The notes below the pieces were generated by a model. That model was given only the letters and a program-made list of their open reading frames with translations, was not told the origin of the DNA and did not search any database. Both the position numbers and the translations under genes were made by a program. DNA of 64,000 nucleotides from Heterodontus francisci (taxonomy: Eukaryota): assembly GCF_036365525.1 (NCBI RefSeq), contig NC_090383.1, forward strand, positions 85,549,123-85,613,122. Direction: 5' to 3'. Position 1 is the first letter of the stretch. Each line of letters starts with the position of its first letter. This document shows, piece after piece, positions 4,528 through 37,423 of the stretch.

Positions 4528-4773
4528 TAGAGAATTCCAAAGATTCACAACCCTCCGAGTGAAGAAAACATTGGACCGGAGCTCAAATATAGACACAGGA
4601 CAGGAGACCTGCCAGAAAAATTCAACCAAACTTGGACTTTATTCAGAGACTTAAATGTGGAAAATCACCCTAAGGCGTTTCAGAACTAAGGAACATACGC
4701 CAAACTTCAGGAAGACAGGCGGCCGAAAGCTTACTACAAGAGACAGGTAGAGGGTGATGGTCAGTACACTCAC

Positions 4774-4883
4774 TTATCATGAAATGGATGTTCCTCCCCG
4801 AATTCCCGCAGATGTTTTTTCTGTTTTTTGGTTAAGTTGCTCCCAAGCTGCCGCGATTTTCCACCACTCTTTCTTTTCCCCAT
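4774..4883 (-). CDS. UTP25: UTP25/DIEXF (digestive organ expansion factor, SSU processome), coding exon 1; no further exon identified in this window
   Basis: ATG at 4883 gives [36 protein letters not shown]+AA, then a GTGAGT donor (phase 2). Matches the vertebrate DIEXF N-terminus [18 protein letters not shown]. Confidence 0.95.
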
Positions 4884-5197
4884 TTCCCCCACCACGCGAC
4901 TCTTCAACTAGCTCGGGCCTATGCGTTTGCTGCGGATTTGATTGGACAGTTTCCGGGGGCTAGTCCTGTACCACCTCCCTAAATGGTCTCATACCATTGG
5001 CTTACTCGCCTCCCAATTGCGTTCAGAGATCACGGCGATCTGTGATTGACGTTGACAGTGTCCAATCAATAACCGTATTCGGGAGAAGGCGTTAACAAAT
5101 GGAGGGGGAAACACTAATCAGATGGCCCGGAGCGAAGATGATGGGCGGGACTCCGAGTGCCAGGTTTGCTTGAGCTGTCATGTAACTCGCCATTTTG
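4884..5197. promoter_or_regulatory. CpG-rich bidirectional promoter shared by UTP25 and the RGG/Pro-rich gene
   Basis: CCAAT/ATTGG boxes at 4941, 4996, 5013 and 5062; GC box GGGCGGG at 5143; YY1-like CGCCATTTT at 5188. Locally CpG-enriched between divergent first exons. Confidence 0.8.
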
Positions 5198-5344
5198 TGG
5201 TCGCTGGTCACGATTAGTTTGCTTTATGGGGGCTTTTCTTTGGAATTAAAATACGTTTATAAACCGCCTGGGGTTTCACTCGAGGGAACTTTAATAAAAA
5301 TAAAGAGCGCACGATTTACCTATAATCCCACCTGCACAGTGGAG
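5186..5344 (+). other. Exon 1 of the RGG/Pro-rich gene (5' UTR or non-AUG coding; start position approximate)
   Basis: Ends at a consensus GC-type donor GAG|GCAAGT (5345). The frame is open from 5186 and in phase with the exon-2 ATG. Contains an out-of-frame 7-codon uORF at 5226-5249. Confidence 0.6.
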
Positions 5345-5810
5345 GCAAGTATGCAACAGAGTGCCTTTCTCATTCTTTATGTCGCTGTCCGAGTGGTGCG
5401 AAGGGGTTACAGCTAAGGCCGAGGTGGTTCTCAATGTGGTTCTTTGTGTTGTGATCTCACTGACTGAAACCCATTCGGGACGGAGAAGAATCAAACAAAC
5501 TTTTCTCATGTTTGTGAAAATTTCCGGGTCCTTTGTAAATATCAGTAATATCGTCCGTTACAAATTTGACATATTTTTCATTTAAAAGAATATGACCATT
5601 GATGCTCTTAGTCAGAAAGCAGAGAGAATGTATTAATAATGCGTTCTAGACCCGGTTATTTTATTCAATTATCTTAAGTGTCAAGACAGCAACAGTAAAA
5701 TAGGTTTCCCTTCCCGCTCACTTCTCCACAGTTGACATCAATCATTTCACATTTCCTTAAATATAAATAGATTGTTATCGATAACCTAGAATTAGATTTT
5801 CTCCATTGTT

Positions 5811-6037
5811 GTGCGGCCCTAAATTCAATTTACTTGTCTCCCTTTCGTCAACCCCAAAGATTGCTGCTGCTCCTGTAAATCGGGCATATACTGATGTCGA
5901 AAAACTCAAGTTTTGTTTTTCACTCCATTTACTTTTTCTGTAAACCTTTAGAATAAATGTAATAGTTGATTTAAATATTTAACTCAATTTACATTCTTAA
6001 GCAATTCCATAAAACAAAATTTCTACTATCATCTCTC
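5811..6037 (+). repeat. ~225-bp direct repeat, copy 2 (probable source copy)
   Basis: Sequence matches 4303-4527. Confidence 0.9.
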
Positions 6038-6235
6038 GAAACCTGTTATATACCTATCTCCTTTTTTTGTGATTGACACTTTTGCCCCACCCTTCCACCC
6101 CAATTTCAGATACCAGGTATGATAGGTGTGTGGCTTTCTTGGCCTCAAATTGAAAATGTTGTGCTGCTACTTCTGACATGGACTCCTGTGAACATCTCTC
6201 TAATACCGCATTCACTCTAATTCTAATCCATGTGT

Positions 6236-7165
6236 TGGAGCCTCAATGATTTACAATGTATGTTAAGGATTGTAAAGGGACAGAGTGTACTGTAGATAAA
6301 ATTTGCTGATGATAGATGGGAAAGCAAGTTGTGAGGAGGATACAAAGAATCTGCAAAGGGAAAAAGATAGGTTAAGTGAATGGGCAAAAAATTGGCAGAT
6401 AAAGATAATGTGAGAAAATGTGAGGTTATCCACTTTGGTAGGAAGAATAGGAAAGCAGAATATTATTTTAAATGGGGAGAGACTATAGAATATTTCAGTA
6501 CAGGGGGATCTGGGTGTCTTACATAAATCACAAAGTTAATATACAGGTGCAGCAAGTAATTAGGAAGGCAAATAGAACGTTGGCCTTTACTATAAGGGGA
6601 ATGGAATATAAAAGTAGGAAAGTCTTGCTACAAATACACAGGGTGTTGGTGAGACCACACATATAGTACTGTGTACAGTTTTGGTCTCCTTAATTAAGGA
6701 GGGATGTACTTGCATTGAAGACAGTTCAGAGAAGGTTCATGAGGTTGATTCCTGGGATGAAGGGTTGTCTTACGAGGAAAAGTTGAGCAGGTTGGGCCTG
6801 TACTCATTGGAGTTTATAGGAATGAGAGGTGAACTTATTGCAACATACAAGATTCCAAGGAGGTTTGACACTGTAGATGCTGAGAGGAGGTTTCCCTTTT
6901 TGGGGGAATCTAGAACTAGCGGGCAGAATTTCAGAATAAGATGGAGATGAGGAGGAATTTCTTCTCTGAGGGTTTTTAATCTTTGTAATTCTCTACTTCA
7001 GTGAGCAGTGGAGGCTGGGCCATTGAATATATTCAATGCTGAGATAGATTTTTATCTACAAGGGAGCCTAGGGTTATAGGGGCTGGCAGAAAAGTGGAGT
7101 TGAGGCCACAATCAGATCAGCCATGACCTTATTGAATGCCGAAATCCTATTTCTTGTGTTCTTAT
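6236..7165 (+). mobile_element. CR1 LINE 3' fragment
   Basis: KFADD, QVQQVIRKANRTLAF, LVRPHI, GLYSLEF and a CR1 tail TTTCTTGTGTTCTTATG. Confidence 0.85.
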
Positions 7166-7169
7166 GCTA

Positions 7170-7650
7170 CTGGATAGTTTCTCTCCCATCTCCATGTCGC
7201 TACACACTCTCTCGACTCATGTCTTCCATGAGACCATCTTCTGCCCCCTCAATTTCCTCCTCACGTAACATGTAACCACAGTCAATTACCTCTCCTGGAC
7301 GCCTTGCTAGCTGTCATTGTTAATGGTGCAGTGTGCTCGTCGAACCACCATCTGCCAACTATCATTAACACCCCTCAAAAAAATCCCCAAACTATCCATC
7401 CTCTTTAACTGCCACACCCATCTCTAACCTTCCCTTCCTTTCAAAGGTCTTCAAACATGTTGTCCCCAATCAGCTCTCTGTGCCATTCTGCCAAAATGCC
7501 TTATTAGAATCCTAATAGTCCACCTTCTGCTAATCTCACAGGTTTCAAGACCACAATGACATCTCTATAGCTATGATTCATGATCCTGCCTTGTCTTCAT
7601 TAATCTCTCCACGACATTTGATATGGTCAGTTATACTGCCATCCTCCATT
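7170..7650 (+). mobile_element. Old L2 LINE fragment
   Basis: Degenerate RT region (CCCATCTCTAACCTTCCCTTCCTTTCAAAGGTC = PISNLPFLSKV). Confidence 0.55.
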
Positions 7651-7654
7651 GAAA

Positions 7655-8092
7655 AAAGAATTTGCATATATATATAAAGCACCTTTAAAGATTTTACAAT
7701 GTCCCAGAAAAACTCTCGGCCAATTAAGCACTTTGAAATGTAGTCACTGCAGTACTGTAGGCAAACGTAGAAGCCAATTTGTGCACCACAAGATCCCACA
7801 AACAGCAATGAAATAAATATTCAGGTAATCTGGTTTTTAATTATGTTGCTTGAGATAAAGATGTTGACCAGGACATTGGGTGAACTCCCCTGCTTTTCTA
7901 GTAGTGGCTTGGCATCTTTATCCAATTGAGAGGGAAGATTAGGCCTTACTTTAATGCCGCTTCTCCTTTATAATAGTGTTTGGTACCACACTTAAGTGTC
8001 AGTGTATACTATGTGCTCAAATGTATCGAGTGGGGCTTGAACCCACAAGTTTCTGACTCAGGCCAGACTGCTACTATTGTGCCACAGCTGAA
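7655..8092 (-). mobile_element. Old tRNA-headed SINE with L2-type tail (Deu/SacSINE1-like); related copies near 31310-31640, 37600-38010 and 48290-48590
   Basis: The reverse complement shows a tRNA-like head (GGGTTCAAGCCCCAC) and an AAAGGTGCTTTATATATATGCAAATT tail. The central block GCCAATTTGTGCACC.CAAGATCCCACAAACAGCAATG recurs. Confidence 0.6.
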
Positions 8093-8149
8093 GGCAGTAT
8101 TTATTGCCCATGCCTTGTTGGCCTACCAGCATTAAGAGTCAACTATGTA

Positions 8150-8620
8150 TTCAGTGCACCATTGTTTAATTAAGCATGCACACTACCTTGCTGTATGATT
8201 TGTATTCTATATGCCAAGCTAATCTTTAACTTCCCATCTATCTCTCTGCTAAGCTAATTTTTAACTTCCCAATTAACACTCTATCTGTTTTACCCCAACA
8301 GGGTCCCTTAGAGGTAGAGACAGGAGAAATTATAATGGGGACCAAAAGAAATGGCAGAGATGTTAAACAAATGTTTTGTAGCTGTCTTCACAGTAGAAGA
8401 CACAAAACATAACGGAAATAGTGGGGAACCGAAGATCTAATGAGAGTGAGGAATTTAAAAGTATTAATATTAGTAACAAAAAAATTCCTTGAGAAATTAA
8501 TGGGACAAAAAGCTGATAAAACTCCTGGATCTGATGGTCTACATCGTAGGGTTTTAAAAGAGGTGGCTGCAAAGATAGTGCATGCATTGATTTTGATCTT
8601 GCAGAATTTCCTAGATGCTA
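8150..8620 (+). mobile_element. CR1 fragment with a shared 5' flank, duplicated at ~12075-12520
   Basis: KKFLEKLMGQKADKTPGSDGLHRRVLKEVA. The preceding ~150 bp recurs at 12075. Confidence 0.7.
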
Positions 8621-8879
8621 GGACTGGCCAGATGGTGTCCTGTTTGACTCAAAGCTGAGCTTCAAGTGTTCAGTCCTATCCATCAGTCAGTTCATTTTTT
8701 TTTTCTACCTTCGCAAAATTGCATGGCTCTGCCCCTCTCAGTTCTGTTGCAACTGAAATTCTTGCTTTGTCACTATTAGAGTCCATTTTTCAAATCTTTT
8801 TGCTGCCTTCCTATTATGCACCATTCAGCTGTAACTTATCTAACACTAAGCTGCCTGTATTCTGCCAGATAAACAGTCC

Positions 8880-9630
8880 ATCTTGTTTGCCTTCTACCAT
8901 CTTGCAATGGAGGAAGTTGGGGCAGAGATTGGTGATGAAGCAGAGGTGGCATGTAGCTTGGGTGTCATTAGTATACTTGTCAAAACTGATACCATGCTTC
9001 TGGTAACATTACAAAGGGGTAGCTTGAAAATGGTGACGAAGAGAGAGCCAAGATTGGAATACTTGGATACACCAGGAACAGACATGCAAGGAGAAGCCAG
9101 TTGAGGCAATGGAATGTCTATGATACAGCAGTAAGGAATTGAACCAACAAAGAATAATGCCGCAAATATGAACTTTGGAGAAGAAACAATCAAGGACAAT
9201 GGATTGGGTTGGCCATGTTAATGATTGTGGGATGGTTGAGGAGGAGTAGTTAACATTGGTCACAATTACGTAGGATGTCAGTGACTTTGACAAGTGTTTA
9301 TGTACTGTGAGTAGGACAAAAACATGGTTAAGGGCTTTGAACAGTAAGTTGTGAGGAAGCTGGGACCATAGTTGAAACACAATGGTGTTCCATAACTTTA
9401 GAAAGAAATGGAAAGTTAAAGAAAGCAGTAGTTGGAGATAATGGAATGATTGAGAGAAGAGTTTTTTGAGGGGATTGTTGATTGTAGTTTTCAGAGATGT
9501 GGGATTGACTCAGGATAGAGCCAGGTTGATACTACTGAAATTGGGTGGTAAGAAGCTGGGACAACACTCATCACAAGGCTAGAAAGAGTGCATTTTTGTG
9601 ATGGGGCTCAGATGGGAGCTCATTGTCTTG
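8880..9630 (-). mobile_element. Old L2-like LINE fragment
   Basis: Degenerate purine-rich plus strand typical of an inverted L2 ORF2. No intact motif. Confidence 0.4.
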
Positions 9631-9681
9631 GTTAATACATCACCAAAGCTAACTTGATTTTTTTTAAAATTTGATTTGCAG

Positions 9682-9722
9682 ATGGATTTTGATGAACAGA
9701 CTGGTGGTAGTAACTATGTTAG
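9682..9722 (+). CDS. RGG/Pro-rich protein gene, exon 2 (first ATG): MDFDEQTGGSNYV(R)
   Basis: TTGATTTGCAG|ATG..GTTAG|GTAAGC, 41 nt. Its phase-2 end joins exon 3 in frame. Confidence 0.8.
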
Positions 9723-10821
9723 GTAAGCTAATGTGCAGAAATATGGCTTTGAACATTTTGATGTAAATAGTGGGTTGGTAAAAGGAAGTATGGTAAAATT
9801 CCATTTGAAACAAGGTTTAAAATAAAGGCTCAACACATAACAGGTTGAGAAGTCATGTAAAAACACAGTCGTTTTCTGGTAATCAAGTGAAACCAGATGA
9901 CTGATTCTGAAAGATGGCGTGGATTAATTTGTGGCCAACTTGGAGTGACCACATCACTAAAGTGTGTTAATAGCATTAGTGTCTAGATTTGGGGCCAGTA
10001 GTTAGTTGCAGTAAAAGCACCAATCTGAATTACTGCAGTCCCTGTAGTGTATTATGCACATTTCAAAAACTTGGCTTTCACATCTATTATGTCACCTAAT
10101 GACCATTATAAGCCATGCAAACTCTCTCCTTTGGTTTAATATCATCCACTCAATCAGATGTTTGCCTTAGAATCACTCTTATTAGATACAAATTCCTGTT
10201 TGGGGCATTTTAGAGGTTTTTAACTAGTTGTACATCATGTAAAAAGTTCTTGAGGGTGGGATGTTACAAACTTGCTTGTGTTTGAGGAAATGTCATCATA
10301 TCAAATAACATGCATATCCATAAATTATGAGATGTAATGAGCTAAGCATTTCAACACTATAGTGAGATCCACAAACTTATGCTATTTTAAGATATTTTGA
10401 AAACAAATGTTATTTTACAAACCATTCTGTACTTAAGTGAAGTCTTTGTTTTCATATTTACTTAATATTTTGAGTACTGAAAAATACCTATGAACCATAA
10501 AAATAGTGCACTACTTTTGTTTCTTCTGAGCTAAATGGCTAAAAATGTGCATTTGTTTGCTGACCAATTTCTAAGAAATGTATTCAGGATAATTGCATTT
10601 GGATGTGAGAAAATACTTATGGTTTAACTTTTTATGCCAAGTTGGATAGTTGAAGAAATTAACTTACTAATTAGTTCCATTTTACAATGGTACTGTAGGG
10701 ACTTATTTATTAACAGTCCAAGTCTCTGAACATTTTCTGCTGTTTGGATTATAGTGCCATTTTATACTCAATATAATGTGCAGCATAGAGGAATAAAATG
10801 TAACGCTACTATTTTGAGCAG

Positions 10822-10995
10822 GGGCAGAGGAGGTAAAGGAAGAGGAAAAGTTGGACGGATGGCTAGAGGTGGCAGAGGAAGGGGCAGCAGAGGTGTTTTT
10901 GGAGGACCTAAGGACCTCGGGCCACCGAGTGGAGATGGATCATCTGGCAGATTTGGGCGAGGACAAGCAGCTGCTAATGGATTTGGCTCCGCAAG
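10822..10995 (+). CDS. RGG/Pro-rich protein gene, exon 3: GRGGKGRGKVGRMARGGRGRGSRG..NGFGSA(R)
   Basis: TTTTGAGCAG| ..GCAAG|GTATTT, 174 nt, phase 2-2. A GC-rich RGG-coding island in an AT-rich intron. Confidence 0.88.
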
Positions 10996-12074
10996 GTATT
11001 TCTGTTATTTTCCAATTTCTTCTCCCTCCTATCCTTAGGATGATGATTTGATCTGGGTATACCTCCAGAAGCCTTCAGTACCTCATCTAAGTGAATATTC
11101 TTTGTTGGTGAACATGGACAGTTATGTGTTGGTAGCGAATTTGACTTGGGGCCATGTCAGCCTTTCCCTCAGTCAACAGTCTATACACGTGTATTTGCAG
11201 AAGATTACTTGATGGTGATCAGAAGAGGAGGGGAGTTGTCAATATGTCTTTTCCCCAGGGACAAAAGCTAATTATGTATGTCTGTCAATCAGCCCTAGTC
11301 ATGACAATGTAATTCGACAGATCGGGGATCAGGCATAGTCTCAATGAATATAAATGAACTTGAGGAATATAAACGCCACTGGAAAAGTGGTCCAAGTGTG
11401 GCGAACTAGAGAAGTAAAAGATATTGCTGGATTAAAAGAGGCTTACAGTGTTGTTAAAAAGAGTAGTAAGCCTGAAGATTGGGAGGGTTTTAAAAATCAA
11501 TAAAGGATGACCAAGAATTGATAAAGAGGGATAAAATAGAATGAGTAAACTAGCAAGAAATATAAAAACAAATTTTAAGAGTTTCTACAAGTATATTAAA
11601 AAGAAGAGATTCGCAATTGTTCTATTGGATCTATTGTTAAAATGAGTAGTGACAAACTTAGTTGATGCTGGTGAGGTTCAGTACCTTTTTCTTCCCTCAG
11701 TATGCAAAATCATTTCCAACAGGGTTAACGGAGCACAATAAATGTAAGCATGTATTCTAGCATTGTACAAATTTTCGGAGCACAGAATGTCTCCTTTTTA
11801 TATCTCCTTCCTATACCTCCTTCCTTTAACAAGCTTGAATTTATCTCTTTTCCCTTTACACCTGACCTCACATGATACTTATTCTCAGTAATTTTTCATC
11901 GGTTCCCAGACTGACCATACTCCTTTCCCTTATCTGCCTGTTTTTATTTTCTCATCAATCTAATTTCTGTGTGAAAATTACACAGCCACAGATACAGTCT
12001 CAGTAACCCTCTTATTTATCAAACTTCTTCAGTCGGGGCCACTTTCAGACTTTCAAGGTCCAGCCACAATGTCT

Positions 12075-14270
12075 TATTTAGTACACCATTGTTTAATTAA
12101 GCATATACACTATCTTGCAGTATGATTTCTATTCTATAAGCCAAGCTAATCTTTAAATTCCATCAACCTCTCTGCTAAGCTAATTTTTAGCTTCCCAATT
12201 ACCTCTCTACCTCTTCTACCCCATGTTTGAATAGCGTCCCTTAGGAGCAGAGACAGGAGAAATTATAATAAAATAAATCGCAGAGATGTTAAGCAAATAT
12301 TTTGTAGCTGTCTTCACAATAGAAGACACAAAAAAACAATGGAAATAACGGGGAACCGAAGATCGAATGAGAATGAGGAATTTAACAGAATATTAGTAAC
12401 AAAAAAGTACTGGAAAAATTAATGGGACTAAAAGCTGACAAATCCTCAGGTTTTAGAAGAGGTGACTGCAGAAATAGTCCATGCATTGGTTTTGATCTTC
12501 CAGAACTCCCTAGGTTCTGGAACAGTCCCAGTGGATTGGAAGGTAGCAAATTTCACAAACCTGAAATGCTAACTCTCTCAACACAAATGCTGTCTGACCT
12601 GCTGAGTATTTCCAGCATTTTCTGTTCTCATTTGAGTTCCAGCATCCGCAGTATTTTGCCACTATTATAGAAAATTTAACCCACTTTTCAAGAAAGGAGC
12701 AAAGCGGAAACAGAACTATACGCCAATTTACCTGCTATAAGAAGTAGGGAAAATGCTAGAATCTGTTGGTAACGGGGCACTTAGAAAATCATTATATGAT
12801 TAGGCAAAATCAACACGGTCTTATGAAAAAGAGATTTTATTTGACAACTCTATTAGAGTTTTTTGAGAATGCAACTATCAGGGGAACCAATGGATATAGT
12901 ATATTTGGATTTTCAGAAGGCATTAGTTAAGTTGCCACACAAGAGGTTGTTACACAAGTTTAGGGCTTATTAGATTGCGGGTAATGTATTAGCATGGATT
13001 GAGGATTAGTTGACAACAGAAAACAAAGAAACAGATGAGGAGAAATTTTCTCTGAGGGTCATGAGTCTTTGGAACTCTCTTCCTCAAAAAGCAGTGGAAG
13101 CAGAGCCTTTGAATATTTTTAAGGCAGAGGTAGATAGATTCTTGATAAACTGGAGGGGAGGGGAGCGAAAGGGTATTGGGGGCAGGCGGGAATGTGGTGT
13201 TGAGGTTATAGTCAGATCAGCCATGATCTTCTTGAATGGCGCAGCAGGCTTGAGAGGCCGAGTGGCCTACTCCTGCTCCTAATTTGTATGTAAATGGAGG
13301 TCTGCAACGATTAGTGCTTGAACCTCGGCTATTTTCAACCTGTTTCAATGACTTGGATGAGTATCATATATCCAAGTTTGATGAAAGCTCGGTCGGAAAG
13401 CAAGTTGTGAGGAGGATGCAAAGAGGCTGCGAACACATATAGAATAGTTAATTGATTGGTCAAGAAGGTGGCAGATGGAGTATAGTGTGGAGAAATGTGA
13501 AATTAGCAACTTTGCCAGGAAGCATAGAAAAGCAGAATTTTTTTAAAAAGTGAGAGATTAATAGATGATATTCAGAGGAATTCGGATGTCCTTGTACATG
13601 AATCACAGAAAGTTAGCATGCACGCAAAGCAAGCAATTAAAAAGGTAAATGGTATGTTAGCCTTTATTGCAAGGGGGTTGGAATATAAGTATAAGGAAGT
13701 CTTGCTACAATTATATAGAGCTTTGGTGAGACCACACCTGGAGTACTGTGTACAGTTTTGACCTCCTTACCTAATGGAGGATATACTTGCCTGAGAGGGG
13801 GTGTAACAAAAGTTCATTAGATTGATTCCTGGGTTGCGAGGGCTGTCCTTTGGGAGAATTAGAGTAGAATGGGCCTATATTCTCTGACGTTTGGAAGAAA
13901 GAGAGGTGATCTCATAGGAATATATAAAATTATTAGATGTCTTGACAGATGCAGAAAGGCTGTTTCTCATGGCTGGGGTGTCAGAAATATTGAAGTCTCA
14001 AAATAAGGGATCAGCCATTTAGGAGAAAATTTCTTCACTCATGGGGTTGTGAATATTTGGAATTCTCTATCTCAATAGAGAGTTGTGGCAGTCGTTGAGC
14101 ATATTCAAGACTGAGATCAATGATGTTTGGTCACTAAGGAAATTAAGGGATGTGGGGATAGAACGGGCAAGTGGAGTTGATGTAAAAGATCAGCCATCAT
14201 CTTACTGAATGGCGGAGAAGGCTCGAGTGACTGTATGGCCTACTCCTGATCCGATTTCTTATGTTCTTAT
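12075..14270 (+). mobile_element. CR1 LINE, degraded, with nested insertions (12554-12667 short element; ~13036-13290 CR1 tail)
   Basis: MGLKADKS, YLDFQKA, LVRPHLEYCVQF remnants and a CR1 3' tail at ~14190-14270. Confidence 0.85.
12554..12667 (+). mobile_element. Short Penelope-derived non-autonomous element, 5'-truncated within the hammerhead motif
   Basis: CACAAACCTGAAATGCTAACTCT..GACCTGCTGAGTATTTCCAGCA..TTCCAGCATCCGCAGTATTTTGC. Flanked by TAGCAAATTT/TAGAAAATTT. Confidence 0.75.
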
Positions 14271-14695
14271 GGTCTGTATGAATCACTGGCAAGCCATGTG
14301 GTCCATTTACCCAATGAAACATTGTTTTGTGTCATTGAGAATCATAGAATCTTACAGCAGTAGGAGGCTATTAAGACCAAATGTACAGGATGTTTTGACT
14401 CCTTTCATCCTGATTGCCAAAACTTTTAACACTACTCATTTTAATTGTAACATGTAAAATACTTAAAATTATATCATTTTGTTGGAGCAGATTAGAGGGA
14501 GCTTCAGAATGCTCCTTACTGATTGGAGTAAGAACAGTAAGTTCTGTTTTCTTGGTGCTAACATCCCTTACTTTGATTAACACAGAAAAAAGAGGGTTTA
14601 ATTTTAACAATGATTTTATGATCAGTGTTAAAATTGTTAACTTTGTTTGAATTGTGCTTACTCATTTGAGAGTTAAAATTATGTTTCTGTTTTAG

Positions 14696-14842
14696 ACGTG
14701 GTATGGGAAATAGTAGAATGCGTCCATACCCAGATCCTCGAGGTCGAAGAGGTCCGCCTAGGTTTGGACTGCCACTTATGAGGGGAAGGATGGAATGTCC
14801 ATTTGGTGGACATGGAGATCTGGCTTTCCCTCCCCCACCAAG
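14696..14842 (+). CDS. RGG/Pro-rich protein gene, exon 4: RGMGNSRMRPYPDPRGRRGPPRFGLPLMRGRMECPFGGHGDLAFPPPP(R)
   Basis: TTTCTGTTTTAG| ..CCAAG|GTAAGG, 147 nt, phase 2-2, open in frame. Confidence 0.9.
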
Positions 14843-15439
14843 GTAAGGGACTTGTAGGGAATTGGAAACACTTTGGTGAGAACCAGTGAGCCAGATCATA
14901 TGCAAGGGCTAAACTAGAACATTTGCAACAGAAATGGTTATTGATGTTTTAATTTGCATTACTGGACAGATTGAAATCTTTAAAACTGAGAGACGTTAAA
15001 TGGATGAAGCTGGGATGTTGCAAACTGTAATTTAACAGAAGGTGGTGTTTTGAATTCATCTTCTACACAGCCAAGATGGTTATATTGTAAGAGATTCTTC
15101 TTTTGAATGGGGCATCTTTCTTGCATTATTAGAATTATCTTATGTCTCCATACAAAATAAGATGCAAAAATCAAAAGAGCTTGAATGTTGTTGACCCTTT
15201 AGGCAGATGAAAGCCAGCAGCAAGGCTATTTTCTAAATCTGCAATATGAAATTGCACACAGGTGGCCCATAAAATAGTAGATAAATGAACTTTAGGGCAA
15301 AATTGAAGTCTAGTCAGGCACTAGCAACAATCAGTTGGTTTGCCAAGGCCCTATCATGATCAGAGATCTAGAAAGGGTGCTTTTACTATCAAATAGACCC
15401 AAATGAAACTGGGTTCAATCCCAAGTCAAGCAGGTTGAA

Positions 15440-15880
15440 AGTACTCTAAAAATGAATCTCCCCACCACCTTTCTGGACCCTCCATTGTCTCTGTGCTTGT
15501 CTGACGTCCATTCTTAGATGAGCCACAATTACCTCCAGTTAAAAGACTTTGGCCCCTGCCAGAAGCTCTGTTCCCTTGCCACAGATTCCATCCCCCTCCC
15601 TGGCCCCTGTCTCCGATTGAAGCTGACAATTTTGGCATGCTAATTAACCCGAACTCTCCATCACAAAAACCAGCTTCTACCACATCTCTGATCACCCATC
15701 TCTGTCCCTGCCAATCTGCTATTAAAAGATTCATTCATGTCTTTTTCACCTCCATACTCGACTATTCCAATGCTCTCCTAGTCAGTTTCCTATCCTCTAT
15801 ACATTTCCGCTCGTCCAAAACTCTGCTGTCTGTATCCTATCCTCAGCATGTGCTAGGTACCCGTCGCTCCTGCGGTCGCT
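15440..15880 (+). mobile_element. Old L2 LINE 3' fragment
   Basis: FIHVFFTSILDYSNALL resembles the L2 motif LIHAFITSRLDYCNSLL. Confidence 0.6.
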
Positions 15881-16469
15881 GACAAATCGATAGGAGATGT
15901 CTATGCTGGGGAATAAAACTTTTATTTTGGGCAATTATGTTGACATGAAATCCTACTAGATTAGATATTGGCATAATTGGATACTTGTATGACACCACCC
16001 CATCCCCAGTGATGTGCCTCAATGCTATTCTATATCTATTCTGTATTGTGAATTTTTCATAATTTTTACAGCAGCTATCTTCACAGGCGACGGAATGGAC
16101 TGCCCAAACCCCTTTCGTAGGTTATTCAGTCAGAACTAAATTTGTACAAAAGTCCTAGAGTCGCCGACCTTAGTACACAATCTGCATACATCCTTAAAAT
16201 AACTTTATCCTTGGTTTTGTTTGCATATACTTATTTTGCTGAATATTTTGTTCTAAATATTGGATATGCTGTTTTAGAAATTTCTGCCAAATTCTGGAAT
16301 AAGTTGGTACAGGTTAAAAGATTGAAATTACTTACTTTAAACAGCATAAAGTATATGGCAAATTGAACCTTTATGACACTATTTGTAACTATGCTGTTTA
16401 ATTTGAGTGGCAAAGCCTAGTACACTTCAGGAACCATCACCTGGAGACTTAGCATATTGACTTCAGTAC

Positions 16470-17080
16470 ATAAGGACAGAAGTAGATCATTAAACCCCAC
16501 AAGCCTGTTCCACCATGCAGTTAGATCATGGCTGATCTGTTCCTTAATTCCATTTTCCTGCCTTTGCTTCATGTCCCTTGATAGTCTTACCGGACAAAAA
16601 TCTGTAGATCCAGTTCTTGAAAATTTCAAATTGATCCAACATCTAAGATGTTTGGAGGAGAGAATTCTAGACTTGCACTACCCTTTGTATGGAAAAAGTG
16701 CTTCCTGATTTCACTTGGAAATAGCCTAGCTCTAATTTTATGTTTACGCCCCCTTGTTCTGAAATCGCACACAAGAGGAAATGGGGTAGATCCAGAGAAG
16801 ATGTCAAATCCCTTTATCATTTTAAGCAACTCAATTAGATTACTATCTTAATCTTCTAAACTCAATGGAATACAAAGTAATTTTGCGCAACCTGTCCTCA
16901 TAATTTAACTATTCAAACTCTGGTATTCTGGTGAATCAGTGTTCTCCCTTCCAAAGCCAATATATCATTCCTTAGGTTAAATCCTACAGGTTGAATAAGG
17001 CTCTGAACAACTGAAGCCTCACTTTTGTATTTCAACCCCCTTGGGATAAAGGCCAACATTCCATTACTACTTTTGACTAG
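16470..17080 (-). mobile_element. Old CR1 3' fragment
   Basis: KMIKGFD..FPLV..RTRGRKHKIRARLF..IRKHFF. Confidence 0.7.
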
Positions 17081-17117
17081 ACAAGTAGGAATATTTCAGA
17101 AACTATAATAAACCTGT

Positions 17118-17912
17118 GGGCTGGATTTTAAGAGCCCACTGCCGATCTCGGCGGCTAGCTCAAAAATTGGCAGCCCGCCTAAGAGCCGCAGCTATCTTAG
17201 CGCGGCGGCTCATTTAAATAGCCGGGGTGGCCTGCCCCTACAATCACATGGAAGGGTGCGCTGTCTGTCCCCGGCAATGGCGTCAGCTGCCAGTGTGCAG
17301 GCACTGGCTTCATCTTTAAAAGCAGCCAGCCCTGTCGGCACATTTTAATTTTTAAATAAGTATCCCCCCAAAATATATCCAATAAATTTTAAACGCCCCT
17401 TTTCCACCCAGCCAAAAAACACTTACATTGATGATTTGCCCTCCCACCCCCCCCAAAATACTTACTTTGTAAATATGGCCTTCCCCCCACAGACTACACA
17501 AATTTTAAAGTTCAATCTTTCCCACCATCCCCTACACCCATTACATTTATTTGACCCCATCTCCCCCAAACCCCCCCCCCCAATAGAAAATATAAATCTC
17601 CCCCCCCCCCCCCCCCCTCCCAACCAGTGTCACGCCACCTTTCCCCAGATGAGGAATTGAAGGCACGGGAGTGCAGGCCACCACGCCGAAGATCGTGGCA
17701 GGCCCTCAAGATTGCAGGTGTGTATTTTAATTTATTAATTCCCTTCATTAACATATGTTAATTAGCATCCTCCGCCACGGAGCCTCGCTGTCGCCGGGAG
17801 GATCGGGCCAGGGCCTCTTGGCGTTGAGGTCCGTGGCGGGCCTCTTCCGGACCTATTTCAAGACCCCTTTCCCCCGTCGGCTCTGGAGCCCAACAGCGAG
17901 GGCTTGGTAAAA
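17118..17912. mobile_element. Non-autonomous DNA transposon (Harbinger-like MITE); relatives at 25897-26080, 61838-62500 and 62630-63372
   Basis: Begins GGGCTGGATTTT. GC-rich subterminal arms share GCGGCTCATT..TGTCCCCGGCAA with the 62630 copy. Poly-C centre. Confidence 0.6.
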
Positions 17913-18552
17913 TGTTTATAATAGTCTCTGCAGAATATTCATTTAATAGTGATGTTCCCAACAAGTGCCTGCTGCTAATTGGGTGCTATTGGTGAAGACA
18001 ACAGAAGCCTTTTTTTTGTTGGGAAAGATGTTTTAGATAAAGAACTGTGTGGTAAGGTGTATAATTGGAATATTTTAGTAAGAAATCAGTAGACAGAGAG
18101 ACTCCGCTTTGTAGAGGTATATCACCATTTAGTAGTTTACATAAACTTGAACATTAAGAATGGATTGGACTCATTTCAGTTGTAACAAGTACTGAACTTT
18201 TACTATTTTTAGCTGTACTTATACTTTAGTAGTTGTTGGGAGCACAGATTGTTGTGATGTTGCAATGCCAATGTTCTTGAACTTTCTGATGAGGTGATTG
18301 AAAATACATGGCTTGCAAGGAATTTTAGCAGAAAAGTTCTATGCTATTACTAAGCAATGAAAATGTTAGCATTTTTATTGCAGGACCGAAGCTGAAATTG
18401 GGCCTTTTTAAATATTCTACCTCCCAAATGTGTCTGGTCTCTGTACTCTTGTCCAGATGCTTAGAATTTCACCTTCACCATGGTCCTAGTTTGAATAAAA
18501 TATGTTTTGATTTGCTTTCTTTGGTCATTAGCATTTGATAATTGTTTTGCAG

Positions 18553-18660
18553 ATTTAGGGGTGGCGGCCCGCCTCCTCCAGGACCAATGTGCTTCAGAGG
18601 AAGAACCCCTTTTATTGGAGGTAGAGGCATGCGAAGAGGAGTTTTTTCACCTCGGAGAGG
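18553..18660 (+). CDS. RGG/Pro-rich protein gene, exon 5: FRGGGPPPPGPMCFRGRTPFIGGRGMRRGVFSPRR(G)
   Basis: TTGTTTTGCAG| ..AGAGG|GTAAGT, 108 nt, phase 2-2. Confidence 0.9.
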
Positions 18661-18949
18661 GTAAGTGAAACTGAGGCTTGTGTGGGATTGTTTTTCCCAA
18701 AACACTGTAAATTCATTTTCTCTAAGTTAAACAAAATACTTGAATCTATTTTTTGTAATTAGCCCTTCTTGTAGTGAGTAATTTTTTTTGGAAGCCTATA
18801 AAAATCTGCATGTCGAATATTTCAAATGACTATTTAGTGTATAAGATTAAAAGTAGTATAACTGTTAGATTTTTATAACTAACTTTATTTTTTTAATGGA
18901 AAAGTACACCATAAAACAAAAAAAATTGTGATTTTATCCTTTTACACAG

Positions 18950-19040
18950 CTTTCACAATGGACCTGGTGCGCCGCTGCCACCTCCGCCACCTGGACGGGG
19001 CCAGAGATGGCCTGGACCGCCAGGTGGCAGACACTTTTAA
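18950..19040 (+). CDS. RGG/Pro-rich protein gene, exon 6 (last): FHNGPGAPLPPPPPGRGQRWPGPPGGRHF*
   Basis: TTTTATCCTTTTACACAG| then TAA at 19038-19040. Total spliced CDS is 561 nt = 186 aa. Confidence 0.9.
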
Positions 19041-19678
19041 AGCCACTTATTGTTAAATTGTATAGTGGGGTGCACACAAAAAATTGTGAGATGGCCGGAC
19101 TAGGAACAGCAAATAGTAATGCTGGCAAAGAAACTTAGTTGAGACTTGTCAACAATATTTGCAGCAGCCCTCATGCACCAAATGGCATAAGCCATACAAA
19201 TACATATTTCTGTGACTCCTTGGACTTTCGAAGCATTGTTTTATATAAGCTGTATGGACTCCTTGCGGTGCCTCATGCTCACAGAAATCTTGAATGATTA
19301 AATAACCATTCATCTCTGCCGAGATCAAGCATTTATCTTTGTAAAGAATCATGCAGTCTCCTTTTATGCAGTTTGAAAATATTTTTGTGCAGCTAATTTA
19401 GCTTAGGTAGCTGTGATTGTTTTAATAATATTTGTCTAGAAATATTGCTTGTGCATCCTTATTTTATAGAAGTGAAGTGTTTTTAAACTTGAAAATACTG
19501 ACAGCAAGTAACAATGTAAAGTAAAAGTAGTGAATGGCTGGATGATTCCATACATGGAAAAGAAATCTCACTGTTTTAAGTTTTGAACTGTTAGAAACAC
19601 TAAATAATGTAACTGAAGTAAATGTGGATCAATGTTACTTTCTGAACCAGAAAGAGCATAATGAAAAACTATTGAGGA

Positions 19679-19684
19679 AATAAA
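19679..19684 (+). terminator. Candidate poly(A) signal of the RGG/Pro-rich gene
   Basis: AATAAA about 640 nt after the stop, in non-repetitive AT-rich UTR-like sequence. Confidence 0.4.
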
Positions 19685-20999
19685 AAATATTTAAAACAAT
19701 TGTGAATTTCAAAGGGTTTTAAATTCATTTTCCCAAAATTTATATATACAGCGCAACTCGACCCTTTTGATTTTGTATTTAAACAATAATTGAAGTGTAA
19801 CATGTTATGTTTGACAAACAAAAATGTTAGAGTTAATGTATCTAACTACATTCATTTGAATATTTTAATGAAGTAATGTATATTAACTTTTACCATATAT
19901 TCATATGAATATTCTAATGAAAGTGTTATCAGTACTTGGTACAAAGAATTTAATGAACAACTGTAATTCTTTCTAATGTTGCCATATTGGTGGCAGAGAA
20001 ACATAGCGTAACGACGGAAAAAAGTATTATGGAACAGAGCCTGCCATCTTCCAGGATGATCACAACCTAACTTGCCACTAAAACAGTTCGTTTAACAACG
20101 AACCTTGCTAGTTCCCTTTGTGCTGAGGGCTGAATTCTATCTTCTGACCAGTGCGCAGTTCAAGTTAACCTTAGGCTAGCTCTACCCTGGGTCTTAAATC
20201 TGCAAGCAGGAATTGTATGTACGAAGAGACAATAATTTGTTAAGGTATGGTTAACTAAATTTTATGTGGGCATGTCCCCCTACCTATCTGGCTTCCAGTA
20301 ATATATTATTATTAAAAGGTAGCATTAGAAGAGATTAATATTTTAATTTATAGATCTAACCGTTGAAAAAAATCCTTGGGTAATTAAAATGTAGCGATTT
20401 TAATGTTGTGCAATTTAAAATTTTCCCCTTTTTTTTAAGCCTTTGATGCAATAAGCCTGTTAACCAATTTTTCTAATTTTCTTCAATATTGCATGTGATT
20501 ATAAATTTAATTTTAATCACCACCTTTGCTGTGGTGCAAGATTGATGCTGTTGTTGTCTCCTGAAAGGTAACATAGGTAGTGCACCCTGTGTGGCTTACT
20601 GGTGATGCTGAGACTGCTGGGAAGCTTGAGCACTGAATTCAGGTGAGAAGTTTTTGCGTAATTATTTTTTTATTTACTGGTGTTACCTGAAGCGGTGCAG
20701 AACAATGTTGCTTAGTCCAATTTTGAAGTGGCTGCTGTGCTTTAAACTGCTGTTCTTGCTACAAAGAGTATGATTTTTAAATACCACAAATACTCAGTGG
20801 GTAAATTCACTTTATGTTTTGATATTGAACGGTACAGACAGTTAAGAATGCTGATTCGATCACTGTTCTGTGCCCAGGCAGCAGTGGGGCACAACAGTTG
20901 GTCAGTAATCCTGACTAGAGAAGTGAGCATATCAACTATTTGCTGCGTCTGTTTGCTATCCATTAGACCCTGTTAGGAAATGTGGAAGTTTGTATTTAA

Positions 21000-27173: not shown

Positions 27174-27253
27174 CTGAAAAGGGAGAAACATTTTATAAGT
27201 TACAGACATGCATGACAGACAAATCAGAAAAATTGTACAAATATAAAACTGAC

Positions 27254-27343
27254 CTTGGTCACCTCCATAGCAACCCCTTCTGGAAGATTGCGCTGGATAT
27301 ATTCCAAGTACACATTAGCAGTGCTTCCAGTCAGATGTTTGAT
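27254..27343 (-). CDS. MRPS10: MRPS10 exon 6: [30 protein letters not shown]
   Basis: Nearly identical to human [31 protein letters not shown]| ..AAG|GTCAGT, followed by an 80-nt intron. Confidence 0.97.
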
Positions 27344-29101
27344 CTAGCAGAGAGCAGCATCAGTATTAAAAGTAAGCTCAAATTGGTTAATCGCATACAA
27401 CAAGCACAGCTTTCTAAACTGCCCTCTATTTAACAATTAAAGTGTACTTCACACAGAAAACATTAGAAAAAGTGTGTTTTTCTTTCAACATGTGAATTTG
27501 TAAAATGACTCTGGAATTGAGGGTGGCTCAGCAGTACTATCTGTACAAACCAACTTCAACTCCAAGAATAGCTATAGAAGTATGTTGAATTAACAAAATA
27601 CAACAAATTCTGATCATTAGACCCGGGAAGGAAATTGACAAAAAAGTAAATTGACTGGCAAATAACATATTTGTAGGAAGTGCTTTGGAGTCTTAACTCA
27701 TAGCAACATAAAGTAATGGATCACAAGGTCAATACCTTACTCTTAATTTCCAGTCACAGCTATGACATCATGGGCAGCAGCCAAACACAGGCTGGCAGTT
27801 CCCCCAAAAGGAGAAAAACCTAGAGAAAGATTTTTTTGTCAGCCTGCTGTTATATACCTGAACAGTTGAAAAGGTTTCAAAGTAGACTGACTGTTCTATT
27901 GTCTGGTAGGTACCTGGCATTATAAGATCAAAAAGGATTTGACAGAAAATCAAGGGTTACATCTGGTGAAAGATGAAATTTTGATTATGCTTGATATTAA
28001 AAGGCTGGATAGTCACAGATTATCAGCAGTTTGTGATATAATTAAGTGACTATAACAGATCTCGAGACTGCCTCTGCACATGCACACTACTACCATATTT
28101 CACACTGGGACTACGATTAGAACGTCCAGCCATTTGGCTGATTATTTACCAATGAAGCAGTTCTATACAGTGAGTTCATGTGACAAAATATATTTAAATT
28201 ATGTTAACCTGCAGAATGTACTGTCTCAGGATCAGTGTATTTGAGTCAATATATATCTAGCAAATACATTTTCTTATTTGGTTAATGAGGAGCAAAGAAA
28301 AATTCAGCCTTGTCCTTTAAGTTTTTGCTCATTTACTAATTGCTTGAAATCACAGCATGTTTTTAGTAATAGTTGAGTATAATTATGATTAGGTAGGACA
28401 TGATGGGAAGAATCTGATCATTCAAAGTTATATTAGATAGGTGGGTGAAGGAATATGGGAACAGATTGGCTAAATGTAATTAGAATTATTTCCAGCACGA
28501 AAAATAAATTTCTCAGACTGGACAGACCTATATGTCCTGTTTATTGTTGTAACTTCTATATTAACTAATTTGAGCAAGAGGCAATAGGGATTTTCTTTAA
28601 ATAACTTGATGTTCTCCATTTCATAATAAACGTGTGTTTCTACACTGCAGCCATCACTAGGACTCGCATGGATGGCTACTGAAGTGCATTCCTTTTTGGA
28701 GAGAGGATTAAAAATATAGTAAGGATGGGCTTATCAATCCTAATGGCCATTTCTCATTCCTAAACATACTGGCCCACAAAGGGCTATTAAAATTTTGAAT
28801 GAGAGTCAGTCCAAGTTGGGTTTGCTCACCTAATGAGCAGCAGGGAACTAAGAACAAATTGGACTGCATTTTGTGGTCAGCGGCAAAGCCAGTCATATAG
28901 GAACAGCAGCCTAAGTGAGTGAACAGATAAATAAAGAAAAAAAAAAGCAAAGTAATAACTAAAATTACCTTCACTTTAGCACCATTTAAATGGTTCAAAA
29001 TTATATGAAGTTTAAATATTTTACGTCTAATCAGTTGAAAGTTTAAACTAAGATATCTACTGTGCCCTAGATTTCTAGTTGATATTTTGCCTTTTACTTG
29101 C

Positions 29102-29210
29102 CTCAATACATCTGTAGTATGTTCTCATCTCATACTGAACTCTGTGCTTCTTGAAAATGTGAATAGATTTGAGAAGTGTCATTCTGTCAATTTTCTTTGC
29201 AGGCTCATAC
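29102..29210 (-). CDS. MRPS10: MRPS10 exon 5: [36 protein letters not shown]
   Basis: uS10 motif [21 protein letters not shown]| acceptor and GC donor GAG|GCAAGT. Confidence 0.96.
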
Positions 29211-30973
29211 CTAAAAATATTTTTATTAAAAAAATCATGTTAACTTCACAAAATGTGATTTTAAACCACGGAACATCAATCTTAGTTTTATTGACTTTAC
29301 ACAAGCAAAGTCTCAGCTACGTATAAATATCAAAACTGCCTTCAATGTAGCTGCCACAGTATGTTCTGAAGGGGAGAGTGGGAAAACTAGAAAAAGGTAC
29401 AAGCCTAGAACAAAGCAGATAAAACAGATGCAGCTAGAGTTTTCTTGAGGATTCCGATGGGTTAATCACTGGAACCCATGAAGAAAAGCAGTGAACAGCT
29501 AAAAATGGCCATGTGCGGCTTTTTCCTGGGTTTCCTTTGACCTTCAGCTAAAGTTCCAGCCTGATTTGGCAAACTGCACAGAAATTCTCCCCCATAATAC
29601 TCATCTGAACTTTTTTTTTCATCACAGGTTCACTGGGCTAGTGTAAAATCTGAATAACACTAAAAGTAAAGGGAAATAACCAACCTATTTCTCTGAATGA
29701 TAATGTCCTCCACATTCTAACACCCTTCTCATTCTGTCTCTTTTGGGATGGATCACTTATGTATACATTTTATATTTAATGTGACGCTAGATGCCACAAG
29801 ATGGCTTAATCCTCACTCTGCTGAGTTCAAGATCTCAGCTGCATAGCCCACAAACTATTTAGCAAATCCTGTTTAGAATTCCCAAGTGTGCATGGTCCAG
29901 CTGCTCATTCCTAATGGTATGTGGAATAAAGATGCATGGATATTTTTTGCTTATATTGGATAAATACATTTTTATAACAAAAAAGTGGGGGACAGTGAGT
30001 TGCAATCTGCCTTTCCCCTCCGAGATCTAGGTTTCAATCAGGCTCAGACTGATGGGATGTAAGAATCTTACAACAGTAAATTGCATTTATAATGCCTTTA
30101 ATATAGCAAAGCATGCCAAGGTGCTTCAGGAGCATATATAGACAGGCAAAAAAAAAAATTTCACTGAGCCAAATATTAGGCCAGGTGACCAAAACTCGGT
30201 CAAAGGTAGATTTTAAGAAGCGTCTCAAAGGAGGGTGAAAAGGTTTAGGGAGGGAATTCCGGAGGTTCGCGCCTAGACAGCTGAAGGTCTGGCTGCCAAT
30301 AGTAGGGCAAAGGAAGTTGGGGATGCACAGGAGGCCAGCGTTGGAGTTGCTTGGACAGTCTTGATCAGGTTACTACTATTCATTGCCCTTACATTGGTAC
30401 TAATTGGAAATCTCAGACACAATAGTATGTATGACTTGTGAGAAATGGAAAATGTAACACTGGTACAATTGGGGTGGTTCTTCTGAACTGTGAAATTTGA
30501 GGCAGTGTTTTACTCTGCAACTAAATCACCTGTGAGTACGTTATGCTGAAACTGGATACCTGAAATGGAAGTGTTCCATTCCTAGTGCTAACTTATCTTG
30601 ATGAACACAAAAATCGCAAAGAAAATGGAATTAACATAATGATGAGTATTATGAGGAAAAGTAGCATTAAAAAGGCAGGAATTTGTCTTTGCTATGAGAA
30701 TGAAACCATGAATGGACTGAAATTAAAGTGATTTTTTCATTGCTATAATTTATGTACAGCATACCAACTACTTACTGGGAACGTGGTGAAGGAGGTCTGT
30801 GTTCAGACACAACAGTGCCATTAATTTTGTAGAGTGGATAGAGTGCATGGGATTTCTATTCCCTGTGTAACTGTAGTGCATTTGAATGTAAGGGAAACAA
30901 GTCCAAATTTTAAAAGAATCCACTTGACATATTAAATCCAAAAAGATGCTTATAACAGCAATTAAGTACTTAC

Positions 30974-31113
30974 ACTTTATCAACAATGATATTCAGCTCT
31001 TTAGCAGCAAGTGTGGCAAAATATTCATAGCTATCCAGTACAGTTTTATCATGGCCCTTCACCAACACAGAGATTTTCTTGTAAAGTGCATCAGGCTCAT
31101 CTGTTACTGTTGC
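30974..31113 (-). CDS. MRPS10: MRPS10 exon 4: [46 protein letters not shown](V)
   Basis: Matches human [39 protein letters not shown]| ..|GTAAGT. Confidence 0.97.
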
Positions 31114-33913: not shown

Positions 33914-34438
33914 TAACACAGGACTATGTGCACGCTAAACAGCAGAAGCAGCATCCTACAGAGCTTAGCGAACCCACAACCAACAGATCAGACCAAAGCT
34001 CTGCAGTCCTGCCACATGCAGTCATGAATTGTAGACAATTAAACAGAACCACAGAATTGTTAAACAATCAACCAGTGGAAGCTCTGCAAACATCCCCATC
34101 CTCAATGATGGGGGAACCCAGTACATCAGTGTAAAAGACAAGACCGAAGAATTCGCAACCATTTTCAGCCAAAAGTGCTGAATGGATGATTCATCTCGGC
34201 CTCCTGAGGACCCCAGCATCACAGATACCAGTCTTCAGCCAATTTGATTCACTCCATGTGATATAAAGAAACAGCTGAAGGCACTGAATACAGCAAAGGC
34301 TTTGGGCCCTGGCAACATCCTGGCTGTAGTACTGAGGAATTGTGCACCAGAACTAGCTGCGCCTCTAGCCAAGCTGTTCGTGAACAGCTACAGCACTGGC
34401 ATCTACATGTCAATGTGGAAAATTGCTCAGGTTGGTCT

Positions 34439-37095: not shown

Positions 37096-37423
37096 GTTGT
37101 AACTTCCATGTATGTAAGTGTCCAAAGTTATATTGTTATAAATATAGATAAGTATCATTCTTATTTTTATACAAACTCAACATTTTCTAAAAGGTGCCCA
37201 GATATTTTCTGTGCCTAGAAAAGTAAATAATTATATAAAGTACCTTGAAAGTGTAATTGGACATTTTCTATTCGGATCTCAAGAATTCTGATAATAAAAT
37301 TGGCGTATTTGAAATTTATGTCTAGATTTCATGACAAGCTAACTACTTAAAAATATACAGCATAGTTTGTAACAGATTAAACAGAGCACCAAAACAATTA
37401 ACAAAATATGCAGGAAATCTTAC

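Follow-up and report, generated by a model that had tools for sequence, protein, structure and literature searches.

Among the closest described systems are disordered tails rich in glycine, arginine, proline and methionine, which passages of two papers present as CARM1/PRMT substrates bound by the Tudor domain of SMN, the GYF domain of CD2BP2 and the WW domain of FBP21 (PMC3281842, PMC11412891), the first of these providing a precedent for tails of the PGM/GAR kind (GAR, glycine-arginine-rich). Cargoes of transportin-1 offer a second comparison, as excerpts of one source define their nuclear localization signal of the proline-tyrosine type (PY-NLS) by disorder, basic character and the motif R/K/H-x2-5-PY (PMC7930572). 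A third is CHTOP, which, according to the title of a reference in PMC6547761, autoregulates through intron retention together with nonsense-mediated decay (NMD); parts of the same source describe autoregulation by alternative splicing coupled to NMD in many RNA-binding proteins, and the rule that a stop codon more than 50-55 nucleotides (nt) upstream of a downstream junction invites decay. Here we describe a gene of the si:ch211-51e12.7 family in a 64,000-nt stretch of the horn shark Heterodontus francisci (contig NC_090383.1, positions 85,549,123 to 85,613,122 of the forward strand; hereafter the window, numbered from its first letter), whose 186-residue product ends in a nearly invariant tail.

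Results

The locus is a genuine spliced horn-shark gene of six exons, laid out as follows.

5181..5344, plus strand: exon 1, non-coding (joint 5342->9680 (+2) in runs X1, X2 and X19; 5' end taken from the length of X1 record 1)
9682..9722, plus strand: exon 2, whose first base opens the start codon; acidic, poorly conserved N-terminus
10822..10995, plus strand: exon 3, RG/GAR-type repeats ending in an invariant Asn-Gly
14696..14842, plus strand: exon 4, PY-NLS-like block followed by a Pro/Gly/Met-rich stretch
18553..18660, plus strand: exon 5, poly-Pro run and conserved Phe-Arg-Gly block; branch point of tailed and tail-less isoforms
18950..19040, plus strand: coding part of exon 6, nearly invariant C-terminal tail with a free aromatic residue at its end
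19041..19700, plus strand: 3' untranslated region (AATAAA at 19679; contig ends at 19667-19764)

The five coding exons have AG/GT ends and join into 561 nt, which make up 186 codons plus the stop; each of the four coding introns is in phase 2. Splicing was read from contigs of four of the 22 listed public runs, none registered as RNA but guessed by us to be so, set against positions 4600-19900; 15 of the 305 joints are displayed. Contigs of X1, X2 and X19 join 5344->9682, 9722->10822, 10995->14696, 14842->18553 and 18660->18950, covering all five introns, and a single X19 contig spans all six exons, while X8, a more distant relative, contributes the final joint to the joint table as well as a contig lying on exons 4, 5 and 6. 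Intron 1 is of the GC-AG type, with its donor after 5344, and the transcript ends near 19700. The gene, exon junctions, phase-2 introns and translation proposed by the first-pass annotation, which had asked for spliced reads across the junctions, are thus borne out: contigs cross every intron in three runs, and the product is letter-for-letter the same and identical to the H. francisci RefSeq protein XP_067901203.1, automatically named 'collagen alpha-1(III) chain'. Its expectation that exons 3-5 can be skipped in frame agrees with database models that lack exon 3 (P0008) or the PY exon (P0013, P0028 and P0087), but no such skip occurs among the 15 displayed joints from X1, X2, X8 and X19. Exon 1 also carries a seven-codon, out-of-frame upstream open reading frame (5226-5249, plus strand, ATG at 5226), and an ATG stands immediately before a stop at 5180 (plus strand). 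A pseudogene or chance open reading frame was considered and rejected. Rfam finds nothing in the window.

Profile searches and a gene tree show what appears to be one orthologous jawed-vertebrate gene, the si:ch211-51e12.7 family. An exon-4 query returned four shark proteins whose clusters contain XP_067901203.1; a profile of five sharks gave 33 matches, and a 27-sequence profile gave 82 among 8000 scored candidates. Seventy-seven of the 82 bear a species name, and the taxa are sharks, chimaera, teleosts, bowfin, caecilian, frogs, lizards and turtles; among the five records without one, three group in the tree with teleosts, frogs and squamates, and two are unplaced. Several teleost members carry the name si:ch211-51e12.7 (E 1e-68 and 4e-63 with the 27-sequence profile), P0021 and P0026 match the shark-only profile at E 6e-11 and 5e-8, and the similarity to proteins so named runs along their length. 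The tree and all conservation counts below use 51 tail-bearing records, one per species, picked from 139 collected after isoform duplicates, tail-less and partial models were set aside. Teleosts, squamates, chondrichthyans and turtles each form one side of a starred branch, and amphibians need two changes; the gene tree thus follows the species tree in four of five groups, which supports orthology.

No bird, crocodilian, mammal or lamprey occurs among the 82 matches from the 8000 scored candidates. We take the blank in mammals and birds as moderate evidence for absence, although, according to passages of one paper, assemblies of bird genomes often lack GC-rich genes (PMC5470226). A full-library hidden Markov model (HMM) search with the five-shark profile against 1.84 billion representatives gave seven matches, all in the si:ch211-51e12.7 family, and is a weak test for mammals. 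In the ESM Atlas an unnamed 122-member chordate cluster at 0.91 is probably the protein's own, and the gecko orthologue has no named cluster there. A full-text literature search, whose coverage excludes the supplementary tables that may list the gene, found no paper under the placeholder or LOC names, and the matches listed for convergent bird and mammal loss and for diexf synteny hold nothing on it. The gene is therefore annotated but mislabelled and uncharacterised, with a wider range than the first-pass annotation held. That text had called it unnamed, whereas it carries misleading automatic names and the teleost placeholder; its suggestion of a fish-lineage gene fails on the orthologues in caecilian, frogs, lizards and turtles, while its failure to recognise a human orthologue (the 82 matches include no mammal) and its view of the gene as uncharacterised (no Pfam family, no paper under the placeholder name) both stand. 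The automatic names themselves (collagen, fibrillarin, SmB, CPSF6, SF3B4, formin, WASP and others) were rejected as compositional mislabels with no matching family domain.

Gly makes up 26% of the protein and Arg and Pro 17% each; it has two Tyr in 186 residues and is basic (35 Arg and Lys against 8 Asp and Glu). Closely spaced RG repeats define a tri-RG region, and closely spaced RGG triplets an RGG box. The former are present (RG at 14, 16, 21 and at 29, 32, 34, 37), whereas the three RGG (positions 16, 29 and 123), against 18 RG dipeptides, are too few for the latter; the 51 orthologues average 2.6 RGG and 16.3 RG per protein. The earlier 'RGG' label was therefore right about RG repeats and overstated as to RGG. 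An AlphaFold model from a 27-row alignment has a mean predicted local-distance difference test (pLDDT) of 55 and a predicted TM-score (pTM) of 0.13, a charge/hydropathy plot places the protein on the disordered side, and no Pfam family reaches E<=0.1 in any of the 27 alignment members, nor in five proteins scanned separately; PDB sequences give no match to the family profile at E<=10. The low model scores and the 27 empty Pfam scans agree with the earlier statement that no folded domain is visible, and the protein is predicted to be fully disordered and built of short linear motifs. Conservation climbs along the chain (0.35, 0.49, 0.59, 0.72 and 0.81 for exons 2-6), and runs of at least five prolines occur in 40 of the 51 orthologues.

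The climb culminates in the C-terminal tail, where residues 170-184 form the best-conserved 15-mer, with a clade-weighted score of 0.97 (the runner-up has 0.82). When the shark is compared with each group of bony vertebrates, identity over residues 168-186 is 84-88%, as against 41-46% for the whole protein, and Trp177 and Pro180 are found in 51 of 51, the Trp always exactly 10 residues from the end. PPPG[RH] occurs in 41 and PPG-x-[RK] in 43 of the 51, patterns compared only with a loosely worded 'PPG motif', which passages of PMC11412891 describe as recruiting CD2BP2 and FBP21 in the nucleus and which the tail carries; PxxPxR is present in the tail of 17. A peptide so well kept inside a disordered chain that otherwise drifts speaks for a specific partner. 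An Arg also stands third from the C-terminus in 49 of the 51 (residues 184-186 in P0005), recalling the R-x-x pattern of C-degrons.

A second conserved island lies in exon 4, where the block has the sequence features of a PY-NLS and so agrees with the PY-NLS-like motif reported at first pass. Arg79 is present in 51, and Pro82 and Tyr83 in 50, of the 51 orthologues, with R/K/H-x(2-5)-P-Y in 49. Tyr83 is replaced by Phe once, whereas the aromatic residues at 158 and 186 swap freely (28 Phe and 23 Tyr; 34 Phe and 17 Tyr). Residues 61-100, at pLDDT 51-62, provide the disordered, basic context, and a loosely defined upstream epitope 1, basic or hydrophobic, may be seen in Arg72 and Arg73 (39 and 44 of 51) and in the invariant Asn-Gly, after which comes a residue that is hydrophobic in most cases. 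All six substitutions displayed for X8 in codons 82-94 are synonymous.

Over the exon pieces covered by X8 there are 8 synonymous and 6 non-synonymous differences at 60 and 176 sites, respectively, with 14 of 29 differences displayed. An estimate of the ratio of non-synonymous to synonymous rates was dropped because no more than those 14 are displayed. The window also differs from X2/X19 by three non-synonymous changes (10851, 10931 and 14787), and at codons 51 and 103 its residue is unlike that of most other sharks too, which hints at recent drift outside the motifs.

The tail is not present in every database isoform. Twenty-three of the 139 records, from sevengill shark, eel, two frogs, lizards and turtles, end in Val-Thr, Val-Arg, Val-Ile or Ile-Thr directly after the exon-5 junction, and eight stop at the junction; in 4 of 14 same-species pairs the full form has a junction Ser and the short form Arg-Val-Thr. 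Following the phase-2 donor, the next codon of a retained intron would begin with T and cannot encode Val, so these short forms use another acceptor. A candidate in the shark is the following.

20568..20642, plus strand: candidate alternative 3' exon, the sole Val-Thr-stop match in 18661-26000, lying outside the 4600-19900 contig stretch

Its acceptor has the best pyrimidine tract among acceptors that give an immediate stop, and a consensus donor follows 20642. Splicing from exon 5 to 20568 would put the stop 71 nt upstream of the exon's own donor, a distance that fits the NMD rule, and it is tempting to see 20568-20642 as a tail-removing, NMD-type alternative exon.

Within the window a UTP25-like gene precedes the gene and MRPS10 follows it.

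4773..4883, minus strand: first coding exon of the head-to-head UTP25-like neighbour, from its translated sequence (ATG at 4883)
4884..5180, no strand assigned: shared CpG-island promoter, which extends for about 300 nt from the neighbour's ATG to the 5' end of the gene as supported by contigs
27227..47420, minus strand: recognised part of MRPS10, convergent and downstream, with S10 exons within 30973-31155, 29078-29239 and 27227-27343 and a likely first exon at 47361-47420

A 30-residue part of the UTP25-like exon has no Pfam or PDB match, and the UTP25 N-terminal sequence could not be confirmed from PMC5033581. A 2561-nt X19 contig has its first 91 letters on 4773-4863 and the remainder off the examined stretch. 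The observed/expected CpG ratio is 0.93 in 5001-6000 and mostly 0.1-0.4 elsewhere, and the promoter holds what we take to be CCAAT boxes on both strands and a GC box; a YY1-like site follows just within exon 1. The promoter is flanked by two copies of a segment about 220 nt long (4303-4527 and 5811-6037; 89-97% identity, 1.5 kb apart). The proposed link to UTP25 is thus real as a head-to-head layout here but weak as a functional one, and the layout may not hold in teleosts: three teleost models (P0022, P0042 and P0043) fuse an upstream, same-strand basic helix-loop-helix (bHLH) gene, with PF00010 listed for two, which is presumably mesogenin-like. A tblastn search found no mesogenin-like bHLH gene. 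The teleost upstream neighbour may therefore differ, and the UTP25 pairing may not be universal.

MRPS10 was recognised by PF00338 in three minus-strand frames of 121 scanned, two of them above the curated cut-off, and the best PDB matches of these frames are mitochondrial S10; a crude exon finder missed the gene in the window. A second CpG island (47001-48000) covers its likely first exon, and at 47300-47650 lies the promoter, with presumed YY1- and ETS-like sites and three CRE-like ones, that drives MRPS10 on the minus strand. A plus-strand transcript might start from this promoter too, but none was identified from 47300-47650. The MRPS10 exon near 29078-29239 apparently closes with a GC donor, which would give each of two adjacent genes a GC-AG intron. 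Many fragments that we take for CR1-like long interspersed elements, ordinary repeats, occupy 6200-7150, 12500-14300 and 42000-58000, and a 481-residue reverse-transcriptase-like frame lies at 50416-51861 (minus strand).

Gene order elsewhere suggests how the mammalian copy may have been lost. Rows of the PMC7915476 supplement give SYT14-UTP25-IRF6 for human, C6orf132-GUCA1A-GUCA1B-IRF6 for chicken chromosome 26, and C6orf132 and/or GUCA1A beside IRF6 in several salmonids; GUCA1B lies on human chromosome 6 at 42.2 Mb and on chicken chromosome 26 (PMC6170504 supplement). Taken together, these orders agree with a reciprocal exchange in the line leading to human, one breakpoint of which would fall inside the gene's interval, and a rearrangement at the UTP25-gene-MRPS10 block would fit as a plain mechanism for mammalian loss. 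The human IRF6-DIEXF interval contains a cleft-associated enhancer, according to parts of a preprint (bioRxiv 10.1101/135368). The text and supplements of PMC10061024 and PMC6170504 hold no mention of MRPS10, and a search of the window for IRF6 motifs found none. The second breakpoint of the proposed rearrangement adjoins GUCA1B. The literature is in conflict over this gene, as guca1b is lost in all marsupials in one paper and an opossum GUCA1B position is listed in another.

Discussion

We tentatively favour, with somewhat less than even confidence, the reading that the gene encodes a nuclear, arginine-methylated, motif-only ribonucleoprotein (RNP) adaptor of pre-mRNA processing whose tail docks on one conserved partner and can be removed by an exon switch. 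The gene would be run from a housekeeping-type CpG promoter, and transportin-1 would import the protein through the exon-4 PY-NLS. Its RG repeats and Pro/Gly/Met-Arg stretches may bind RNA weakly and serve PRMTs as methylation substrates, in the way of Sm B/B', U1C and SF3B4, and RNA binding and methylation would place the protein in nuclear pre-mRNA-processing RNPs or condensates. The tail, fixed in length, would dock on a single conserved partner with a fold; the likeliest is a module of the splicing machinery that recognises proline, either WW or CD2BP2-type GYF. Perhaps its dose is tuned by a switch from exon 6 to the alternative 3' exon, which would remove the tail and possibly trigger NMD. 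In mammals, the loss would follow from a rearrangement that broke up the UTP25-gene-MRPS10 block at a point adjoining the shared promoter.

Several points weigh against this reading. Localisation, partner binding, methylation and RNA binding are all predictions from sequence. The neighbour at 4773..4883 is presumed to be UTP25/DIEXF from its N-terminal sequence rather than by a database match, and that human MRPS10 adjoins GUCA1B is likewise our assumption. The tail carries W-P-x-P-P, the pattern of EVH1 ligands, in 46 of the 51, which would suit a cytoplasmic protein. The search behind the taxonomic range missed one of the 33 prior matches (P0031, itself a query row), and its 82 matches name no zebrafish, Xenopus, coelacanth, snake or skate protein. 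Conservation of the tail is conditional on the choice of 51 tail-bearing rows from the 139. The rarity of the 20568 site (one match to the plainer pattern in the window against 0.09 expected, with 9 of 100 shuffles giving it; the combined criteria satisfied in 0.1% of 2000 resamples) was judged by criteria set after the site had been seen. A low-depth X2 contig spans intron 5, and a short isoform in the shark would be equally explained by retention of that intron. In the closest runs (X1; X2/X19), each of the four coding differences on display is non-synonymous, which argues against strict constraint at the tips. R-x(2-5)-PY arises in 18.8% of 20,000 shuffles of the shark protein; the bare motif being weak, support for the PY signal rests on its conservation, and passages of PMC7930572 note that RG regions can bind transportin without a PY. 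Lastly, the likeness to GYF/WW ligands suggested at first pass may hold for the loose PPG motifs of the tail but not for the GIGYF (Smy2-class) consensus, PPG-hydrophobic in excerpts of PMC10187677, which occurs anywhere in the protein in only 11 of the 51 and is absent at the conserved sites.

A bolder version, which we consider doubtful as a whole, extends the nuclear adaptor into an undescribed ancestral RNA-processing factor of jawed vertebrates. Its C-terminal peptide of about 17 residues would be a new docking motif, switched off from sharks to reptiles by an alternative last exon, and the gene would have been destroyed in mammals by a reciprocal rearrangement (GUCA1B|IRF6 and UTP25|gene|MRPS10 giving UTP25|IRF6 and GUCA1B|MRPS10) that created the interval with the human cleft-lip enhancer. 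An independent loss in birds too may have left the gene mostly in ectotherms.

The disordered, RG-rich composition punctuated by aromatic residues could also describe a cytoplasmic or shuttling regulator of mRNP granules and translation, a client of stress granules or P-bodies whose tail binds a decay or translation factor, and database isoforms of shark and frogs (P0013, P0028 and P0087) that skip the PY exon would suit such a protein. We regard this as unlikely, as the PY block is kept in 49 of 51 and few orthologues (11 of 51) have the GIGYF consensus given in parts of PMC10187677.

Another possibility is a nucleolar ribosome-biogenesis or small nucleolar RNP factor, with a GAR region like that of fibrillarin or GAR1 and co-regulated with UTP25 through the shared promoter. 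The head-to-head, UTP25-like gene about 300 nt away in the same CpG island speaks for it, as do the basic RG repeats, but RGG triplets are few (2.6 on average against 16.3 RG), conservation peaks in the Pro-rich tail (exon 6, 0.81) rather than in the RG region (exon 3, 0.49), three teleost models have a same-strand bHLH gene upstream, and human UTP25 functions with IRF6 as its neighbour. This role seems to us rather improbable.

A proline-rich signalling or actin adaptor, in which poly-Pro binds profilin or SH3 domains and the W-P-x-P-P of the tail binds EVH1, is very unlikely. Automatic names such as 'formin-like' and 'WASP-like' imply such a role, which proline runs of at least five (40 of 51) together with W-P-x-P-P (46 of 51) would serve; however, there is no WH2, FH2 or other Pfam domain in the 27 members, the EVH1-like pattern arises in 10% of shuffles, PxxPxR is present in the tail of only 17 of 51, and W-P-x-P-P is flanked by Arg here, whereas classical EVH1 ligands are acidic.

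Least probable of all, the gene may be the orthologue or paralogue, since diverged, of some characterised low-complexity gene of mammals such as PRR3, part of whose human form the exon-4 block may resemble, or CHTOP, which would make it neither novel nor lost: homology searches are weak on low-complexity sequence (here, 8000 scored candidates), but none of the 27 members has a zinc finger or other Pfam domain, the seven HMM matches all fall within the family, no named Atlas cluster was found, and a mammalian orthologue should share the words of so slow-changing a tail.

The partner to which the tail points, with its identity of about 85% between sharks and turtles, is very likely still present in humans, and its discovery could bring a new linear motif to light. 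The gene has been hidden in databases under many wrong automatic names. Should the breakpoint reading prove true, the locus would show cleanly how a housekeeping-type gene can be lost at a chromosome rearrangement specific to one lineage, beside the IRF6 regulatory region.

Comparison with known systems

The nearest relative is the teleost si:ch211-51e12.7, with the same motif order, the same tail and a species-like tree; the shark protein differs in its shorter acidic N-terminus and fewer His and Met. Fibrillarin and GAR1 GAR domains, and collagen, are alike in Gly/Arg or Gly/Pro bias only, and the shark protein has no methyltransferase or collagen family match. The FET proteins (FUS, EWSR1 and TAF15) and hnRNP cargoes of transportin-1 share RG repeats and, after them, an R-x2-PY set in disordered, basic sequence, but in the shark the PY motif is internal rather than C-terminal, and there is no RRM, zinc finger or Tyr-rich prion-like domain. 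CHTOP, the chromatin target of PRMT1, is likewise small and RG-rich and has no classical RNA-binding domain; its C-terminal duplicated motif is missing from the shark protein, which has no Pfam match at all and is far more Pro-rich.

The general class of RG- and Pro-rich disordered proteins is common, and what is noteworthy here is the invariant tail, the tail-less isoform and the position at a breakpoint. Similar in character are the tails of Sm B/B'/N, U1C, SF3B4 (SAP49) and CA150, which have the same G/R/P/M-rich disorder with PPG motifs, and several orthologues are automatically named after proteins of this set. Compared with Sm B, U1C and SF3B4, however, the shark protein is without an Sm fold, RRM or zinc finger, is wholly tail-like, and has a fixed C-terminal motif of its own. 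The best reading by analogy is thus that it may work as the tails of Sm B, U1C and SF3B4 do, while belonging to none of those families.

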